From a virus (taxonomy: Duplodnaviria > Heunggongvirae > Uroviricota > Caudoviricetes): a stretch of DNA of 39,725 nucleotides. The translations under genes and the position numbers were made by a program. Under the pieces are notes generated by a model. The model did not search any database. It had not been told where the DNA came from and was given only the letters and a program-made list of their open reading frames with translations. Positions within the stretch are counted from its first letter, which is position 1. Every line of letters starts with the position of its first letter. This document shows, piece after piece, positions 1,007 through 39,725 of this stretch. The stretch lies in the IMG/VR virus record IMGVR_UViG_638341086_000010. One strand, 5' to 3'.

Positions 1007-1582
1007 CTACGGTAGGGCTGGCCATTCAATATCCGGTGCAGTTGATGTATCAACACGATTCAGCAACACCCGATACTTTTTCCAGGCTTCCAGCAACAAG
1101 GTTTCTTTCTCCGTTGCGATCTCCAGATCCACAGCATCCTGAAGCGGCGCTATATGCTCACTGGCTACCTGCATCAGGCTGTTTTTTGTTTCTTCCGCCT
1201 CCCGGATCCGGAACAGTTTTTCTGCTTCCGTATCCTTCACCCAGGCTGTGCCGTTCCACTTCTGAAACTCCCCTTCCGGGGATAACCAGGTGACATTTTC
1301 CGGTAATGAGCCGAGTTCAGAAATAAATAACGCGTCGCCGGAAGCCACGTCATAAACCGTTTTACCCCGATGATCTTCAACGAGATGCCACGATGACTCA
1401 TCACTGTTGAAAACAGCCACGAAACCAGCCGGAATATCTGGCGGTGCAATATCGGTACTGTTTGCTGGCAGACCTGTATGAGGCGGAATATATGCATCAC
1501 CTTCACCAATAAATTCATTAGTTCCGGACAGCAGATTATAAATTTTTATGGTCCGTGGTTGTTCACTCATTCTGAATGCCAT
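1007..1582 (-). CDS. tfa: Tail fiber assembly protein Tfa (lambda Tfa-like), 191 aa
   Basis: Translation [18 protein letters not shown]... matches lambda Tfa as recalled; start ATG overlaps stf stop by 1 nt (TAATG). Confidence 0.9.
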
Positions 1583-31433: not shown

Positions 31434-32359
31434 AGCTCCACCCCGTAAATCCAGTCAGTGTTCGTCAGGTCGAGTTTTGGTTTGCCGGCTGTCACGCCAG
31501 CCTGTTGCTTGTTTCGGTTGATTTCGAGCTGGGTCCACTTGTCGCGGAGTTTGGCCGGACTTAGCACGTTACCGGACCAGAAGTTGTCCTGGCATGCCCA
31601 GCGGAACAGCACGCACATGTCGCGGTGGTTACGTCCGTCACGTTCACGCATCAGGCGGATATCGTTAGCCCACCCTGCAAAATTCGGTTTTCTGGCTGAT
31701 GGCGCGATGGTCTTCACCATGTCAAACATCCACTCTGCGGCGGTCAGGTCTTCTGCTGTCCCCCACTTGCTGCCGCTCTGAATTGCAGCATCCGGTTTCA
31801 CCACAGGAAGATCGTTTTCTGGTTGGTCAGAGGATTCGCCAGAATTCTCGGACGAAAAAGGTTTTATATTGTCTTTTGTTAGTTTGTCTTTTGTGTTTAC
31901 CTGATTCGGGTAAACGCCTTTACCTGATTTGGGTAAACTTTTTTTACCTGATTCAGGTAAATTTACCTCTTTCAGGTAAACTTTATTTTTCTTACCTGAT
32001 TCGGGTAATGTTGACCATTCACTGACCACATTATTAATGCCGGTATTCCGCCCGCTCTGAATAAAAATCCCACGCTTTACCAGAACACTTTTTGCAGCAG
32101 AACACTTGTGCGGCAATATCCCGGTTAATTCGGAAAGTTGCTCGTTGCTAACCCAATCCAGTTTTTTATTAAAGCCATATGTTTTGCGCATGACAGCCAG
32201 AAAGACCAGAAGCTGGTGCTGTGTTAATCCGGCCAGCATCACAGCTTCCAGCAACTCATTTGCAATGCGCGTATAACCATCATCGAGATCTGCCACGCGC
32301 GGCTCCTTTTGTGCCGCATCCGGCACTGGAAAATTGAATATCTCAGCAGTGTTTGCCAT
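31430..32359 (-). CDS. O: Replication initiator O, about 309 aa, with lambda-like P-interacting C-terminus; an in-frame upstream ATG at 32449 would give 339 aa
   Basis: From MANTAEIFNF…VADLDDGY the N-terminus parallels lambda O (MTNTAKILNF…VADLDDGY); GGGAGGA RBS before the 32359 ATG. The upstream ATG at 32449 overlaps the YdaT-like stop as ATGA. Iterons lie inside the gene. Confidence 0.85.
   Translation of the reverse strand: MANTAEIFNFPVPDAAQKEPRVADLDDGYTRIANELLEAVMLAGLTQHQLLVFLAVMRKTYGFNKKLDWVSNEQLSELTGILPHKCSAAKSVLVKRGIFIQSGRNTGINNVVSEWSTLPESGKKNKVYLKEVNLPESGKKSLPKSGKGVYPNQVNTKDKLTKDNIKPFSSENSGESSDQPENDLPVVKPDAAIQSGSKWGTAEDLTAAEWMFDMVKTIAPSARKPNFAGWANDIRLMRERDGRNHRDMCVLFRWACQDNFWSGNVLSPAKLRDKWTQLEINRNKQQAGVTAGKPKLDLTNTDWIYGVEL
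31897..32010. repeat. ori: Replication origin iterons: five roughly 19-bp copies of TTACCTGATTCGGGTAAAC-like repeats with an AT-rich patch, inside the O gene
   Basis: Five directly repeated units (TTACCTGATTCGGGTAAAC, TTACCTGATTTGGGTAAAC, TTACCTGATTCAGGTAAAT, TTACCTCTTTCAGGTAAAC, TTACCTGATTCGGGTAATG), each internally dyad-symmetric (TTACC…GGTAA); position within O mirrors lambda ori. Confidence 0.8.
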
Positions 32360-32445
32360 AATTCCTCCCGCAATGAGTGTGTTACGATTTGCACCTGAAA
32401 GTCGGCTCTGTTCCAGCAGACCGGCTTTCGCCATTTCTGAACCTG

Positions 32446-32985
32446 TCATATCGCCCCCAGCATGGTAGTAACCATCGCCATCAATGGACCAGCCAGATCT
32501 GGGTCCACACGAAACATCGACACAATACCTTCACTAATTTCCTTCAGTTTCTGGTGGCGTGGTGCGTTGAGAATGACAGCCTGTTTTGCCTCACTGAGTT
32601 CCTTTTCCATTTCAGCCAACCTAGCCATGAAGCTATCCTGCTCAACCAGGTAACCGCGATATTCCAGCGGTAGTACCGCCAGAATTGCCGGGGTCAGTTC
32701 ACGCACGTTATTTCGGTATTTTTCAGAATCGAATTTGTTATCGAGGAAGCGGAACAGCTTCTGGCGTGCACGGCTGACATCATCAGGGAAATCGATGGTG
32801 CCGCCGCCCTGCTCCCGATACTCATTCACAATGAGTGTGGCAACGACATCCTGATTATCTACAGCCGACCAGGCGCGGACGGCATCACGGATTTTTTCGT
32901 GGCCTGGCACCTGTTTTGTTTGAGAACGATTTATCACCGCAGTCGGGCTAAATCCGCTAGTCTGTTGGTATGTAAGTGGTTGCAT
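32446..32985 (-). CDS. YdaT-like (Rac prophage CII-position) regulatory protein, 179 aa
   Basis: Sits in the cII position between the cro-like gene and O; motifs (…EYREQGGG… …LTPAILAVLPLEYR…) resemble Rac YdaT as recalled; AAGGAG RBS. Confidence 0.7.
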   Translation of the reverse strand: MQPLTYQQTSGFSPTAVINRSQTKQVPGHEKIRDAVRAWSAVDNQDVVATLIVNEYREQGGGTIDFPDDVSRARQKLFRFLDNKFDSEKYRNNVRELTPAILAVLPLEYRGYLVEQDSFMARLAEMEKELSEAKQAVILNAPRHQKLKEISEGIVSMFRVDPDLAGPLMAMVTTMLGAI

Positions 32986-33053
32986 AATTGCTCCTTTAGT
33001 TTGAATTGACTGTTAAGTTGATTGCTTATTGTTAAAGAGCGTGAAATGGAAAT

Positions 33054-33284
33054 TTAAGCTGCGTTCTTTTCGGTGTGTGGAAACAACTTCGGAAGATCCG
33101 GGCGAATCTGGTATGCCTTCACTACTCCACCAGTAGCCGTAACAATGCTGCCGACATGTTCAGGGGATACCTTTGCTTTGTTGTGAAGCCACTTATAGAC
33201 GGCCTGCTGTGAAACTTCGCAAGCAGCGCCCAGTTTCTTTTGTGAACCAACGATATTGATCGCTGTTTTGATAGCTGGGTTCAT
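33054..33284 (-). CDS. Cro/YdaS-like HTH repressor, 76 aa
   Basis: Small HTH protein (…KKLGAACEVSQQAVYKWL…) divergent from cI across an operator region; GGAGG RBS. Confidence 0.8.
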   Translation of the reverse strand: MNPAIKTAINIVGSQKKLGAACEVSQQAVYKWLHNKAKVSPEHVGSIVTATGGVVKAYQIRPDLPKLFPHTEKNAA

Positions 33285-33388: not shown

Positions 33389-34078
33389 ATGAAAACAACA
33401 CTCTCAGAAAGACTTAAAGAAGCCAGATTAGCGCGAGGCCTTACACAAAAGGCGCTTGGGGATTTGGTCGGGGTTAGCCAGGCTGCTATTCAGAAAATCG
33501 AAACAGGGAAAGCTAATCAAACAACTAAAATCGTGGAGATCGCGAACGCTTTGGGTGTGCGCGCAGAATGGTTATCTTCTGGCGTTGGAAATATGTCAGA
33601 CAGTACAGTGCAACCAATACAATCAACTGTCAGCCATTCCAAATACTTCAAGATTGACGTTCTTGATATAGAAGTCAGTGCTGGGCCGGGAGTCATCAAC
33701 CGTGAGTTTGTAGAAGTTCTACGCTCGGTTGAGTACTCGTTTGACGATGCTCGTCACATGTTCGATGGTAGGAAGGCGGAAAATATCCGCATCATTAACG
33801 TGCGTGGTGACAGCATGTCAGGAACGATCGAACCAGGTGATCTGCTGTTCGTTGATATCACAGTTAAATCTTTCGACGGTGATGGTATCTATGCGTTTCT
33901 GTACGACGACACAGCCCATGTAAAGCGCCTGCAAATGATGAAGGATAAGCTGCTGGTCATCTCTGATAACAAAAGCTACTCACCGTGGGACCCGATCGAG
34001 AAAGACGAGATGAACCGGGTGTTCATCTTCGGTAAGGTTATTGGGAGCATGCCGCAGACATATAGGAAGCATGGGTAG
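33389..34078 (+). CDS. cI: CI-type prophage repressor (N-terminal HTH plus C-terminal S24 LexA-like autopeptidase), about 229 aa
   Basis: HTH region (…LTQKALGDLVGVSQAAIQKIETG…) and S24 peptidase motifs (…GDSMSGTIEPGDLLFVD… …KRL…); ATG at 33389 chosen because the ORF-track start at 33323 lies inside the operator region. Confidence 0.85.
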   Translation: MKTTLSERLKEARLARGLTQKALGDLVGVSQAAIQKIETGKANQTTKIVEIANALGVRAEWLSSGVGNMSDSTVQPIQSTVSHSKYFKIDVLDIEVSAGPGVINREFVEVLRSVEYSFDDARHMFDGRKAENIRIINVRGDSMSGTIEPGDLLFVDITVKSFDGDGIYAFLYDDTAHVKRLQMMKDKLLVISDNKSYSPWDPIEKDEMNRVFIFGKVIGSMPQTYRKHG

Positions 34079-34199
34079 TACCAATTAAAAATTATCAACT
34101 GGGCATTGTGCTCATTCAGTAAAGAACTAATTCCTATCTTTGCTCTAGGTAGTAATATTAAGCCACCGCAATAATATCTTTACCTAACGGCGTAAGAAT

Positions 34200-34229
34200 C
34201 CCGGTCACCGTGCCGGGTTTTCTTTTGCC
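34200..34229 (+). terminator. Rho-independent terminator downstream of cI
   Basis: CCCGG-TCACCGTG-CCGGG followed by TTTTCTTTT on the plus strand. Confidence 0.6.
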
Positions 34230-34361
34230 CTCCCCTCATCACACACACCGTTAAAAAAACCACCATAACCTCGCTTCAGTTATCGCTATGCGATTCAAGT
34301 CACAAAATAAATCCATCCTAAATACAACCAGTTATATCTAAAGCAACCAATAAAACAACTT

Positions 34362-34396
34362 TTGTTGTTGACGATAAAACAACTATAGTTTTAAAT
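34362..34396 (+). promoter_or_regulatory. Candidate pL promoter with flanking operator-like dyad (AACAAC-N4-GTTGTT)
   Basis: TTGACG followed 17 nt later by TTAAAT; adjacent inverted repeat AACAACTTTTGTTGTT. Assignment is from sequence pattern and position only. Confidence 0.35.
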
Positions 34397-34589
34397 AAGT
34401 TCATCGCAACAACACAACGATACGGCAACTACCTGATTCACCGTTGCGATGACCGCTTAGATCCGCAGTTTGAATTTCAGCAGGCTTCGGGGAGTGCGAG
34501 GGGTGAAACGGACGCGTGAACGTCGGTGTGACCAGCTGAAATTAACTCAACATTTCATACCTTAGTCGCTTCAACGAGGCGGCTTAGTT

Positions 34590-34880
34590 ATGACAACCAG
34601 CGGCCATCCACCGCCTGAATACGCGCAGAAGTCTCTATATGTTCAGCAGCCCAGCTTACGGGCAGGAGTTTTTATGGTTCATCAACATTATGGAACGCAG
34701 ACCGTTAATCGAGGTGCGGTCATGCCAGGAATGCTGGTCAAACACAAAGATGGTACCTGGACTGCATCAGCTAATTTACGCGGACGGCTTTATCTGCATC
34801 GCGGCATCGAGCGCACTTATACCCGTGATTTGCTCGTGGAAGTTTTTCTCGACGGACGCGGTAACGGCCTGAATCACTAA
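34590..34880 (+). CDS. Hypothetical first protein of the early-left operon (96 aa as called; an internal start would give about 68 aa); possibly Kil/KilR-like
   Basis: First ORF after the pL leader, in the position where lambda has kil/cIII and Rac has kilR. Not arginine-rich, so not an N-type antiterminator. Function is a guess. Confidence 0.45.
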
Positions 34881-34955
34881 TCCCCTTTCCTGTTTTCCTA
34901 ATCAGCCTGGCATTTCGCGGGCGATATTTTCACAGCCATTTTCAGGAGGTCAGCC

Positions 34956-35252
34956 ATGAACGCTTATTACATTCAGGATCGTCTTGAGGCTCAGAGCTGG
35001 GCGCGTCACTACCAGCAGATCGCCCGTGAAGAGAAAGAGGCAGAACTGGCAGACGACATGGAAAAAGGCCTGCCCCAGCACCTGTTTGAATCGCTATGCA
35101 TCGATCATTTGCAACGCCACGGGGCCAGCAAAAAAGCCATTACCCGTGCGTTTGATGACGATGTTGAGTTTCAGGAGCGCATGGCAGAACACATCCAGTA
35201 CATGGTTGAAACCATTGCTCACCACCAGGTTGATATTGATTCAGAGGTATAA
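34956..35252 (+). CDS. gam: Gam (RecBCD inhibitor), short GamS form, 98 aa
   Basis: Translation [48 protein letters not shown]... matches lambda GamS as recalled; AGGAGG RBS. Confidence 0.93.
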
Positions 35253-35257
35253 AACGG

Positions 35258-36043
35258 ATGAGTACAGCACTCGCAACGCTGGCAGGGAAGCTGGCTGAAC
35301 GTGTCGGCATGGATTCTGTCGACCCACAGGAACTGATCACCACTCTTCGCCAGACGGCATTTAAAGGTGATGCCAGCGATGCGCAGTTCATCGCATTGTT
35401 GATCGTCGCCAACCAGTACGGCCTTAATCCGTGGACGAAAGAAATTTACGCCTTCCCTGATAAGCAGAACGGCATCGTTCCGGTGGTGGGCGTTGATGGC
35501 TGGTCCCGCATCATCAATGAAAACCAGCAGTTTGATGGCATGGACTTTGAGCAGGACAATGAATCCTGTACATGCCGGATTTACCGCAAGGACCGTAATC
35601 ATCCGATCTGCGTTACCGAATGGATGGATGAATGCCGCCGCGAACCATTCAAAACTCGCGAAGGCAGAGAAATCACGGGGCCGTGGCAGTCGCATCCCAA
35701 ACGGATGTTACGGCATAAAGCCATGATTCAGTGTGCCCGTCTGGCCTTCGGATTTGCTGGTATCTATGACAAGGATGAAGCCGAGCGCATTGTCGAAAAT
35801 ACTGCATACACTGCAGAACGTCAGCCAGAACGCGACATCACTCCGGTTAACGATGAAACCATGCAGGAGATTAACACTCTGCTGATCGCCCTGGATAAAA
35901 CATGGGATGACGACTTATTGCCGCTCTGTTCCCAGATATTTCGCCGCGACATTCGCGCATCGTCAGAACTGACACAGGCCGAAGCAGTGAAAGCTCTTGG
36001 ATTCCTGAAACAGAAAGCCACTGAGCAGAAGGTGGCAGCATGA
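35258..36043 (+). CDS. bet: Bet (Red-beta single-strand annealing recombinase), 261 aa
   Basis: 261 aa, the same length as lambda Bet, N-terminus [41 protein letters not shown].... Confidence 0.95.
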
Positions 36044-36720
36044 CACCGGACATTATCCTGCAGCGTACCGGGATCGACGTGAGAGCTGTCGAACAGGGGG
36101 ATGATGCATGGCACAAATTACGGCTCGGCGTCATCACCGCTTCAGAAGTTCACAACGTGATAGCAAAGCCCCGCTCAGGAAAAAAGTGGCCTGACATGAA
36201 AATGTCCTACTTCCACACCCTGCTGGCTGAGGTTTGCACCGGTGTGGCTCCGGAAGTTAATGCTAAGGCGCTGGCCTGGGGAAAACAGTACGAGAACGAC
36301 GCCAGAACCCTGTTTGAATTCACTTCCGGCGTGAATGTTACTGAATCCCCGATCATCTATCGCGACGAAAGTATGCGCACCGCCTGCTCTCCCGATGGTT
36401 TATGCAGTGACGGCAACGGCCTTGAACTGAAATGCCCGTTTACCTCCCGGGATTTCATGAAGTTCCGGCTCGGTGGTTTCGAGGCCATAAAATCGGCTTA
36501 CATGGCCCAGGTGCAGTACAGCATGTGGGTGACGCGAAAAGATGCCTGGTACTTTGCCAACTATGACCCGCGTATGAAGCGTGAAGGCCTGCATTATGTC
36601 GTGATTGAGCGGAATGAAAAGTACATGGCGAATTTTGACGAGATGGTGCCGGAGTTCATCGAAAAAATGGACGTGGCACTGGCTGAAATTGGTTTTGTAT
36701 TTGGGGAGCAATGGCGATGA
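36040..36720 (+). CDS. exo: Exo (Red-alpha 5-prime to 3-prime exonuclease), 226 aa
   Basis: 226 aa, the same length as lambda Exo, N-terminus [43 protein letters not shown]...; ATGA overlap with bet. Confidence 0.95.
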
Positions 36721-37720: not shown

Positions 37721-37818
37721 ACATGAAAAGCAAAATCATCAGGGAGCTACAGGCTCCTTTTTTATTGTTCGCATTCATCCTCAAGCGTATTAACCAACAA
37801 TTCAGGGATTAATGGAAG

Positions 37819-38363: not shown

Positions 38364-38706
38364 GGCCTGTCAGTTTCTTAAGATATCCAGACCAACCGCC
38401 ACCAACTGGATACGAACAGGCCGCCTACAGGCAACACGTAAAGATCCAACCAAGCCAAAATCTCCTTACCTCACAACACGGCAAGCCTGCATTGCGGCGC
38501 TTCAGTCTCCGCTGCATACTGTCCAGGTGAGCGCGGGTGATGGCATAACAGAGGAAAGAAAATGTCACTCTTCCGCAGAAATGAAATATGGTATGCCTCG
38601 TATTCGCTCCCGGGCGGGAAACGAATTAAGGAATCTCTTGGCACAAAGGACAAGCGGCAAGCTCAGGAGTTGCACGACAAGCGAAAAGCAGAACTCTGGC
38701 GAGTAG
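38335..38706 (+). CDS. xis: Excisionase-like DNA-binding protein (AlpA/Xis family); 124 aa as read, with a C-terminal extension that overlaps int
   Basis: GAGGT RBS; N-terminal 60 aa resemble winged-helix excisionases (…[26 protein letters not shown]…). The frame stays open for 145 nt into int, so the true 3-prime end is uncertain. Confidence 0.55.
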
Positions 38707-39725
38707 AAAAGCTAGGGGATTTACCTGATGTCACTTTTGAAGAGGCCTGCCTAAGATGGCTTGAGGAAAAAGCTGATAAAAAATCTCTCGATTCAGATAA
38801 AAGCCGGATTGAGTTCTGGCTTGAACATTTTGAGGGTATAAGGCTTAAAGATATCTCGGAGGCAAAGATTTACTCTGCTGTAAGCAGAATGCATAACAGA
38901 AAGACGAAAGAAATATGGAAACAGAAAGTTCAGGCCGCCATCAGGAAAGGTAAAGAACTGCCTGTTTATGAACCAAAGCCAGTATCAACTCAGACAAAGG
39001 CAAAGCATCTTGCCATGATAAAGGCCATTCTCCGTGCTGCAGAACGCGACTGGAAGTGGCTGGAAAAAGCGCCTGTCATCAAGATACCAGCGGTCAGAAA
39101 CAAGCGAGTCAGATGGCTGGAAAAGGAGGAAGCAAAACGCCTTATTGATGAGTGCCCCGAACCACTGAAATCTGTCGTCAAGTTTGCGCTGGCAACTGGT
39201 CTGAGAAAGTCGAACATCATAAATCTGGAATGGCAACAAATCGACATGCAGCGACGAGTTGCCTGGGTGAATCCAGAAGAGAGCAAATCAAACCGCGCCA
39301 TTGGTGTGGCGCTGAACGATACCGCCTGTAAAGTGTTGCGTGATCAAATAGGCAAGCATCACAAATGGGTGTTTGTACATACCAAGGCGGCTAAGCGAGC
39401 AGATGGAACATCAACGCCTGCGGTCAGGAAGATGCGCATCGACAGCAAGACATCATGGCTATCAGCTTGTCGTCGTGCAGGAATTGAAGATTTCCGTTTC
39501 CATGACCTCAGACACACCTGGGCAAGCTGGCTGATTCAGTCAGGCGTCCCATTATCAGTGCTTCAGGAAATGGGCGGATGGGAGTCCATAGAAATGGTTC
39601 GTAGGTATGCTCACCTTGCGCCTAATCATTTGACAGAGCATGCGAGGAAAATAGACGACATTTTTGGTGATAATGTCCCAAATATGTCCCACTCTGGAAT
39701 TATGGAGGATATAAAGAAGGCGTAA
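38562..39725 (+). CDS. intD: Tyrosine integrase (DLP12 IntD-type), 387 aa
   Basis: C-terminal catalytic motifs (…[11 protein letters not shown]… …[15 protein letters not shown]…); the whole translation matches the DLP12 integrase as recalled. The gene ends at the window edge, so the att site and target tRNA are outside the window. Confidence 0.92.

Follow-up and report, generated by a model that had tools for sequence, protein, structure and literature searches.

How does a lambda-like phage that has no N gene transcribe its early-left operon, and what does the RNA at the head of that operon do? The question is raised by positions 34397-34589 of IMG/VR record IMGVR_UViG_638341086_000010, a stretch of 39,725 nt (the window) that contains a complete lambda-like prophage in reverse orientation. 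The prophage lacks N and is of the Bievrevirus / DLP12-like type, and the interval in question lies downstream of its early-left promoter, pL. An earlier note on this DNA had read it as a non-coding leader with a long hairpin, perhaps a cis-acting antitermination RNA analogous to the put elements of HK022. Our analysis supports that interpretation in part: the phage is N-less, and the leader is non-coding and partly structured. A kinship with put is not borne out. We tentatively propose, at a probability of about 0.45, that the leader is an ordinary structured 5′ untranslated region (UTR) that tunes expression of the toxic kil gene and the red genes. As such it would be undescribed but not a categorically new element.

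Understanding the leader requires a definition of its two ends. Alignments of five phages, and of 72 unique variants from IMG/VR and phage records, revealed a single strongly variable block at 34312-34405 (plus strand), specific to the immunity type and flanked on both sides by conserved sequence. The block comprises the oL operator, with operator-like direct repeats of families D1 and D3, and pL (-35 TTGACG, 34368-34373; -10 TTAAAT, 34391-34396). The window promoter and the strong promoter of phages 4A7 and Perceval, TTGATA-17-TATTAT, align column for column, and from this we infer a transcription start near 34403. Conserved leader sequence sets in practically at +1, and it is unchanged behind at least four different operator/promoter modules. 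At the other end, kil almost certainly starts at ATG 34674 and not at ATG 34590, since the Shine-Dalgarno (SD) sequence AGGAG, the start assigned by PGAP, and the beginning of DNA similarity to distant kil genes all point to the former. The PGAP start comes from NZ_CP050998.1, the genome with 100% identity; with 34080-34960 as query, E. coli O39:NM F8704-2 is 100% identical. The untranslated leader would therefore measure about 270 nt (34403 to 34674), longer than the roughly 190 nt that the earlier note had placed before the first open reading frame (ORF). Its description as non-coding stands, as both distant homologues and PGAP begin kil at 34674. In addition, the DNA GCGCAGAAGTCT is kept in HK639 and in the window but in different frames, showing that this part does not encode protein.

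The ORF list and a PHROG search also agree with the earlier claim that no N-like gene lies between cI (33323/33389-34078) and gam (34956-35252). The only plus-strand ORFs of at least 30 aa in that region are 34590-34880, which belongs to the Kil family (PHROG 294, E = 1.2e-38), and a 31-aa arginine-rich frame with a TTG start (34470-34565, plus strand; …RGVKRTRERR…). Could the interval be coding after all, either for a short N-like peptide (34503-34565) or for an N-terminally extended Kil of 128-139 aa? The arginine-rich motif of lambda N is TRRRERR, which KRTRERR resembles; GGGGAG lies 8 nt upstream of a candidate GTG start at 34503; and the frame is open into kil in 51 of the 72 variants, which have CAG at position 34563. 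This open frame accounts for the over-long Kil (128-139 aa) given in several phage records, those of Perceval and PhiR47_2 among them. The same position, however, is TAG in 20/72 variants, the window among them, and also in PhiR34_1, an isolated phage. Four relatives (L021, L028, L038 and L059) are frame-shifted by a tandem duplication of 5 nt (TCAAC) that follows 34541, and one relative has GGG in place of the GTG. Substitutions in the frame fall 5, 4 and 3 across the codon positions by our own count, with no third-position bias; PHROG gave no match, tblastn matched only within this phage group, and the leader offers no boxA or boxB target. With an unstable start, an unstable frame and no homologue, the 31-aa frame was rejected as an N relative and judged not to be a gene, and we regard a coding role for the interval as highly improbable.

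As judged from the alignments, the leader is a mosaic of three segments, since strong variability ends at ~34405, 34423-34552 is confined to this phage group, and 34553-34613 matches phi80, HK225 and HK639. The first segment is a 5′-terminal piece shared with other lambdoid pL transcripts, supplying the left arm of a hairpin that we call HP1. The first 24 nt of HP1 (CATCGCAACAACACAACGATACGG, 34403-34426) resemble the pL starts of S9-5 (z = 3.4), HK639 and phi80, so that this 5′ end occurs alike in phages that rely on N, on put or on neither of them. The second segment, of about 130 nt and lineage-specific, provides HP1 with its right arm and also contains a G-rich fold with a three-way junction; a sequence search with 34423-34552 found no match outside this phage group. 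The third, from 34553, is the block found just after an intrinsic terminator, ahead of kil, in phages of the N and put types. The relatives are all at least 93% identical, and the leader has about 15 common polymorphic sites. It occurs behind several immunity modules; of 5426 complete E. coli genomes, 2243 carry it.

The third segment is a tL1-type homologous block (34553-34673, plus strand), whose counterparts come after N and tL1A in phi80 and after intrinsic terminators in HK225 and HK639. Over 34553-34613, identity to phi80 32416-32475 is 82-84%, HK225 and HK639 match as well, and the homology opens at the terminator T-tract, TTTCATACC in the window (…TTTTTCATACC… in the comparison). The order in phi80 is N, the intrinsic terminator tL1A, the block, and then the Rho-dependent terminator tL1B and kil. 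In HK225 and in an HK639-like locus (L161) the block likewise lies 3′ of an intrinsic terminator, and the HK639 record annotates terminators at the block and just upstream. The window retains TTTCATACC but not the terminator stem, the tL1A stem being absent, and its GGCGG…CCGCC hairpin is followed by TGAATACG where the HK639 counterpart has a U-run. A plus-strand terminator scan found no terminator-like site in 34230-34820 and recognised no convincing intrinsic terminator from pL to exo.

At the start of this block lies a hairpin, HP3 (34556-34592, plus strand), which pairs an SD-like GAGG and the AUG at 34590. None of 200 shuffles folds as well (z = -4.4), and the hairpin is 99.8% paired in relatives. 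Its stems differ (GUCGC/GCGGC in the window, GAGUCA/UGGCUC in phi80, GGCAGA/UCUGCC in HK639), but the loop motif UUnnCGAG and the outer CAUA/UAUG pairs are the same in all three versions. On account of its z score, its three different stem sequences and the paired AUG, HP3 is the best-supported structure of the leader. The earlier note would have taken the absence of any conserved structure in homologous prophages as counting against its reading; in HP3 such a structure is kept across phi80- and HK639-type phages with differing stems. A conserved core, TTATGACAACC(A/G)GCGGCCATCCACCGCC (34586-34615, plus strand), starts the MTT(S/G)GHPPP frame and also holds the GGCGG/CCGCC hairpin; within it TTATGACAACCGGCGGCCATCCACCGCC is almost invariant among phi80, HK225, HK639 and IMG/VR loci. 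In phi80 and HK639 the frame forms a mini-ORF of 20-21 codons; it is in frame with kil in the window and out of frame with the annotated kil of HK225. The records leave this mini-ORF unannotated (window 34586-34650; L104 2537-2602; L009 13141-13079, minus strand). It is located between the terminators and kil in phi80, HK225 and HK639, its polyproline stretch is of the kind that needs EF-P, and its SD and AUG are buried in HP3. It could be a leader peptide that couples translation to kil expression or to Rho access.

Is the leader a put RNA? It resembles putL and putR of HK022 and HK639 in being promoter-proximal, 3′ of pL, non-coding and folded, in a lambdoid phage without N, and it begins at the putative pL start. 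We built a covariance model from eight put sequences (HK022 putL and putR, HK639 putL and five more), which align well with one another and have compensatory changes in their stem II, and ran it with filters off. The model gave 93-101 bits on putL sequences and 55-62 bits on the put of PdC23 (62) and on putR copies, and it recovered putR copies on which it had not been trained (L099 and L102; phiEt88, UPF_BP1) at E ~1e-12. It found no match in 34397-34680 or in the relatives of this phage, and its best hit in the window (E = 0.3) falls inside the terminase gene. Unlike put, the leader lacks the invariant core GAACGGC…GUCGG…GGCGGG…CAAU, and where put has two adjacent stems its fold is a closed three-way junction. 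By the measure of this model and its positive control, the leader is not a put RNA.

The comparison with nut sites leads to a similar result. The leader occupies the same operon position as the nutL-N-tL1 leader of lambda and phi80, and it is like phi80 in the first ~20 nt of the transcript and from 34553 onward, where it is homologous to the region after N/tL1A. It is unlike them in having no boxA, boxB or N gene, and in the missing tL1A stem. With up to two mismatches allowed, no boxA (CGCTCTTA or GCTCTTTAACAA) was found in the pL leader; matches elsewhere in the window lie at 30-41, at 24519-24530 and, as an exact copy, at 33029-33040 on the minus strand after cro. No boxB hairpin is common to the pL and pR transcripts, the best alignment being 15 nt and within the shuffle range. 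The N-like arginine-rich ORF with boxA and boxB sites whose presence would have told against the earlier note is absent, and membership of the leader in the put or nut families is refuted. The copy on the cro side is a 12/12 match to rrn-type boxA (GCTCTTTAACAA) and stands in the position of nutR, 14 nt beyond the stop codon of cro. Downstream of it there is no recognisable boxB. It is shared with PhiR47_2 and PhiR34_1, which have the same cro, but not with 4A7 or Perceval. Even with no N, it could bring Nus factors to the pR transcript.

What structure, then, does the leader have? The perfect 10-bp inverted repeat with a 32-nt loop described in the earlier note was recovered at exactly its coordinates (TCATCGCAAC / GTTGCGATGA, 34401-34410 and 34443-34452). 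It forms HP1 (34401-34452, plus strand), and a start near 34403 would leave 8 of its 10 pairs available in the RNA, around a C-rich loop. Such a repeat arises in 34 of 5000 (0.7%) dinucleotide-type shuffles of the 193-nt interval, the whole 40-kb window holds 8 such loci against ~2.5 expected, and HP1 folded alone has z = -2.8. Positions 8 and 9 of the left arm are A/G and C/U in other immunity types, where the pairs persist as G.U; in the O157-type module HP1 is reduced to CAUCG/CGAUG, and one relative lacks 34439-34449, that is, the right arm. The loop also contains half an origin iteron (TACCTGATTC, 34430-34439), which we judged to be chance since it is only half a site. An almost invariant single-stranded linker follows (CCGCUUAGAUCCGCAGUUUG, 34453-34472, plus strand), which the boxA search ruled out as a boxA.

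Beyond HP1, two structures lie in or overlap the interval: the helix 34473-84/34532-43 and the hairpin 34556-34592 (HP3). The former closes the three-way-junction fold (34473-34543, plus strand; z = -2.1) with 12 bp, AAUUUCAGC(A)GG / CC(A)GCUGAAAUU, and encloses an irregular hairpin at 34502-34533. HP1, 34473-34543 and HP3 each fold better than shuffles; the interval as a whole is unremarkable. Among 36 unique relatives, the closing helix is 100% paired and the inner hairpin 99.7%, with changes from A-U to G.U only. A small hairpin at 34485-34501 was not supported, because most relatives have a C.A mismatch there. Over the leader type as a whole 96% of alignment cells are paired, a figure for which shuffle controls were uninformative. 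One-sided stem polymorphisms that keep the pair through G.U outnumber disruptive ones 5 to 1 in this leader type and 6 to 2 in the leader type of Citrobacter and Kluyvera; pooled, 11 preserve the pair and 3 disrupt it (binomial p ~0.03 by our own arithmetic). This bias is weak evidence that selection may act on folding of the plus-strand RNA. HP3 excepted, support for conserved structure is modest. Searches against Rfam returned only chance matches in E-value mode (33900-35100, E >= 1.3); in gathering mode they returned IS009 and an ALIL pseudoknot for the whole window, both outside the leader, and nothing relevant for 11 related loci. DicF, C4 and other phage RNA families have no match in the leader, a search for ops (RfaH) found none there, and a second copy of the leader was found neither in the pR operon nor at any other place in the window.

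We propose that the phage lost N, nutL and the tL1A stem, or had them replaced, as one set, so that pL now leads to kil-gam-bet-exo by an N-independent route. With N, the antitermination device and the terminator stem all missing, transcription from pL would reach these genes without a recognisable intrinsic terminator. The leader would then act on the mRNA and not on RNA polymerase. HP1 may protect the 5′ end of the message, the long helix or junction may serve in processing or stability of the transcript, in the manner of the RNase III hairpin of the lambda N leader, and HP3 would hide the SD and AUG of the MTTGGHPPP… frame, gating translation into toxic kil. Tight control of kilR has been described in Rac (PMC5793797), which fits the gating of a toxic gene. 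Several observations weigh against this proposal. Neither the 193-nt interval (z = -0.55) nor the 278-nt leader (z = +0.12) folds better than shuffles. Two-sided covariation is absent within this leader type, where divergence is too small, so that conservation may reflect recent common ancestry. The three-way junction always lies at most ~70 nt from the start site, like put and nut. A terminator-like hairpin stands at 37741-37759, before xis/int, and some read-through mechanism may therefore still be needed. What the analysis shows is the anatomy of the leader, its homologies with their breakpoints and the lack of put, nut and N; the start site, processing, translational gating and every other mechanistic step are what we infer.

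It is also possible that the junction, with or without HP1, belongs to a new class of cis-acting antiterminator RNA, put-like in function and unrelated in sequence, that would render RNA polymerase resistant to terminators throughout the early-left operon. Its slot between pL and the tL1-type block is that of nutL-N in phi80 and of putL in HK639; it begins at the transcript start and has been kept behind four or more operator/promoter modules; N is missing from the annotated early region of Perceval; and the hairpin before xis/int is conserved. We nevertheless consider such a class unlikely, given that the put model finds nothing, that neither the pR operon nor the rest of the window holds a second copy, that other N-less kil leaders lack such a domain (L092, L093 and L162), and that the structural support is weak. 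Moreover, the terminator stem before the homologous block is gone, so there is nothing to antiterminate before exo. The more specific version, in which the ~70-nt junction at 34473-34543, perhaps together with HP1, would modify polymerase and replace N/nut and put in a lineage found in ~40% of complete E. coli genomes, seems distinctly unlikely. Rho silencing of rac kil was reportedly described by Cardinale et al. in 2008, and the leader might similarly be a Rho/NusG-dependent attenuator that silences kil during leakage from pL in the lysogen. In favor of this are the ~270 nt of untranslated RNA before a toxic gene, the C-rich, G-poor composition of the HP1 loop and of 34540-34640 (C/G 1.57-1.71), the Rho-dependent tL1B annotated 3′ of the homologous block in phi80, and the rise in Rac kilR expression when NusG is lowered (PMC5793797). 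Those C/G ratios, however, stay under the 90th percentile of the window (1.75), and we did not count the rut-like composition as exceptional; the central part of the leader is rich in G and structured, and the tL1B sequence of phi80 is not conserved in the window. Attenuation by Rho is, in our estimate, decidedly improbable.

Another account would give the leader no function of its own and make it a recombination scar from the replacement of nutL-N-tL1A, its hairpins and its conservation being due to chance and recent ancestry. Homology breakpoints that coincide exactly with module borders, a set of relatives so similar that their conservation carries little information, the absence of two-sided covariation, the unremarkable fold of the whole leader and the relative without the right arm of HP1 are all as expected of a scar. 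The bias of stem polymorphisms towards G.U is not, nor are the conservation of HP3 with different stems across phage types and the occurrence of the same leader behind several immunity modules in so many complete E. coli genomes, and on balance we doubt this account. The 5′ UTR could also be the source of a stable small RNA (sRNA). A precedent is DicF, which comes from upstream of dicB in the dicB operon of Qin, a prophage, and has ftsZ as its target, and K-12 annotates the sRNA KilS in the kilR leader of Rac (L008, 7406-7503), a positional analogue. As the leader contains no intrinsic terminator, matches no Rfam family, DicF included, and shows no similarity to the KilS region by eye, this origin is very improbable.

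A structured 5′ UTR, the reading that we prefer, has parallels in other systems. The lambda N leader carries a hairpin processed by RNase III, and T7 early mRNA contains RNase III sites. The present leader is like these in placing long irregular helices before the first ribosome-binding site; the likeness is purely one of analogy, and the closing helix here has only 12 bp. It could stack on the irregular hairpin of ~10 bp, as against an RNase III helix of ~20 bp. Like the leader of Rac kilR, it is a long untranslated leader before a KilR-family division inhibitor in an early-left operon (PMC5793797). In Rac, genes and an sRNA terminator lie between the repressor region and kilR, whereas here pL is ~270 nt from kil, and the comparison with Rac-like leaders that the earlier note had envisaged revealed no recognisable similarity to the kilR leader.

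Leaders of Citrobacter, Kluyvera and Enterobacter prophages (L091-L097, L106-L185) share the arrangement of pL, a 5′ hairpin, structured modules and kil, without N. Their interiors are unrelated to the present leader and they lack the tL1-type block. Their modules are a hairpin at the 5′ end, an element of the form CGCCAG…CUGGCG and, in some, a long-stem domain of 87 nt. The 3′ arm of the 19-bp helix in that domain, ACCAGC-GAAGTTCACTCA, resembles the 3′ arm in the window, ACCAGCTGAAATTAACTCA, at a level that is not significant (z = 1.6-1.9). Homology between the domain and the three-way junction was rejected and is not counted here, as the alignment is not significant and R2, the covariance model built from the long-stem domain, misses the window domain; a hand alignment of the two gave one compensatory pair and one paired indel, on which we do not rely. 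The 87-nt domain itself (L091, L094-L097, L106-L185; e.g. L113 596-682) ends ~20 nt upstream of kil. Its 19-bp helix is 99% paired, with G.U-mediated changes that include U-A to U.G to C-G; it matches no Rfam family, and some relatives are without it entirely. Another module that appears to be structured, CCACCGAGGCAGGACGCCCACGAAGUAGCCGUCCGGGGCAUACGAAGACCGGAAUGAGGUGG, closed by CCACC/GGUGG, lies between pL and the CGCCAG element in some of the leaders (e.g. L097 ~1760-1850, L110, L115). In GTDB genomes of other genera, kil relatives at 79-87% identity have different leaders.

The genes around the leader are those of a lambda-like early region. The first gene of the operon, kil (34674-34880, plus strand), encodes a 68-aa KilR/Kil-family cell-division inhibitor according to PHROG 294 and PGAP, which labels it 'phage encoded cell division inhibitor protein'. 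The protein is 100% identical in 80 IMG/VR loci, and its N terminus, MVHQHYGT, resembles the MIAHHFGT of K-12 KilR. The early-left operon continues on the plus strand with gam, bet (35258-36043), exo (36040-36720) and int (38562-39725). Inside it, the terminator-like hairpin GGAGC-UACAG-GCUCC plus U6 (37741-37768, plus strand) lies upstream of a traR-like gene, xis and int and is conserved in four relatives (L001, L002, L006, L007). Also on the plus strand, cI encodes a helix-turn-helix domain plus an S24 peptidase and is followed by an intrinsic terminator, CCCGGTCACCGTGCCGGG plus a T-run (34200-34227, plus strand), which marks the upstream limit of the intergenic region and is kept in all relatives. 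The 85-nt block between this terminator and the operators (34225-34310) is conserved across immunity types, whereas the adjoining operators vary. The minus strand carries a YdaS-type cro (33054-33284) and a YdaT-type cII (32446-32985), then O, within which lie four origin iterons (TTTACCTGATTCGGGTAAA, 31898-32010), and P, as well as a DLP12-like nin region with ren, emrE, ybcK, ybcL and ybcM.

An IS3-family insertion (25110-26323; transposase ORFs A and B, with the frameshift ALIL pseudoknot at 25391-25507) is flanked by ybcM (26429-27226) and Nu1 (23504-24049), a position at which relatives have ninB…rusA, Q, nmpC and lysis genes. The present copy appears to have lost its late-regulation and lysis module at this site and is probably defective. 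The IS009 match in Rfam lies near the left end of the window (1041-1239, minus strand). Among the related loci, HK225 and a Kluyvera prophage have isrB matches barely over the gathering score, antisense and 3′ of kil (L004 3913-4010 and L095 2388-2485, minus strand).

The nearest phages are members of the genus Bievrevirus (4A7 and Perceval) and the PhiR series. Perceval, in whose annotated early region Q is present and N is not, is an active phage (PMC9928086), which indicates that N-less relatives are viable. The leader is found in active phages such as Perceval, and in the PhiR series among the listed phage isolates, all of them lambda-like and without N. How N-less phages of this kind run their early operons is not addressed in the literature that we retrieved. 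If the leader is an ordinary 5′ UTR, loss of N would be accompanied by that of the first terminator, and the operon would have an N-independent layout; if instead it proved to be an antiterminator RNA, it would represent a second, unrelated case of RNA-only processive antitermination. Under either reading the leader would control Kil, a toxic inhibitor of FtsZ; links to stress responses and to the physiology of the host have been described for Rac KilR, a related prophage FtsZ inhibitor.

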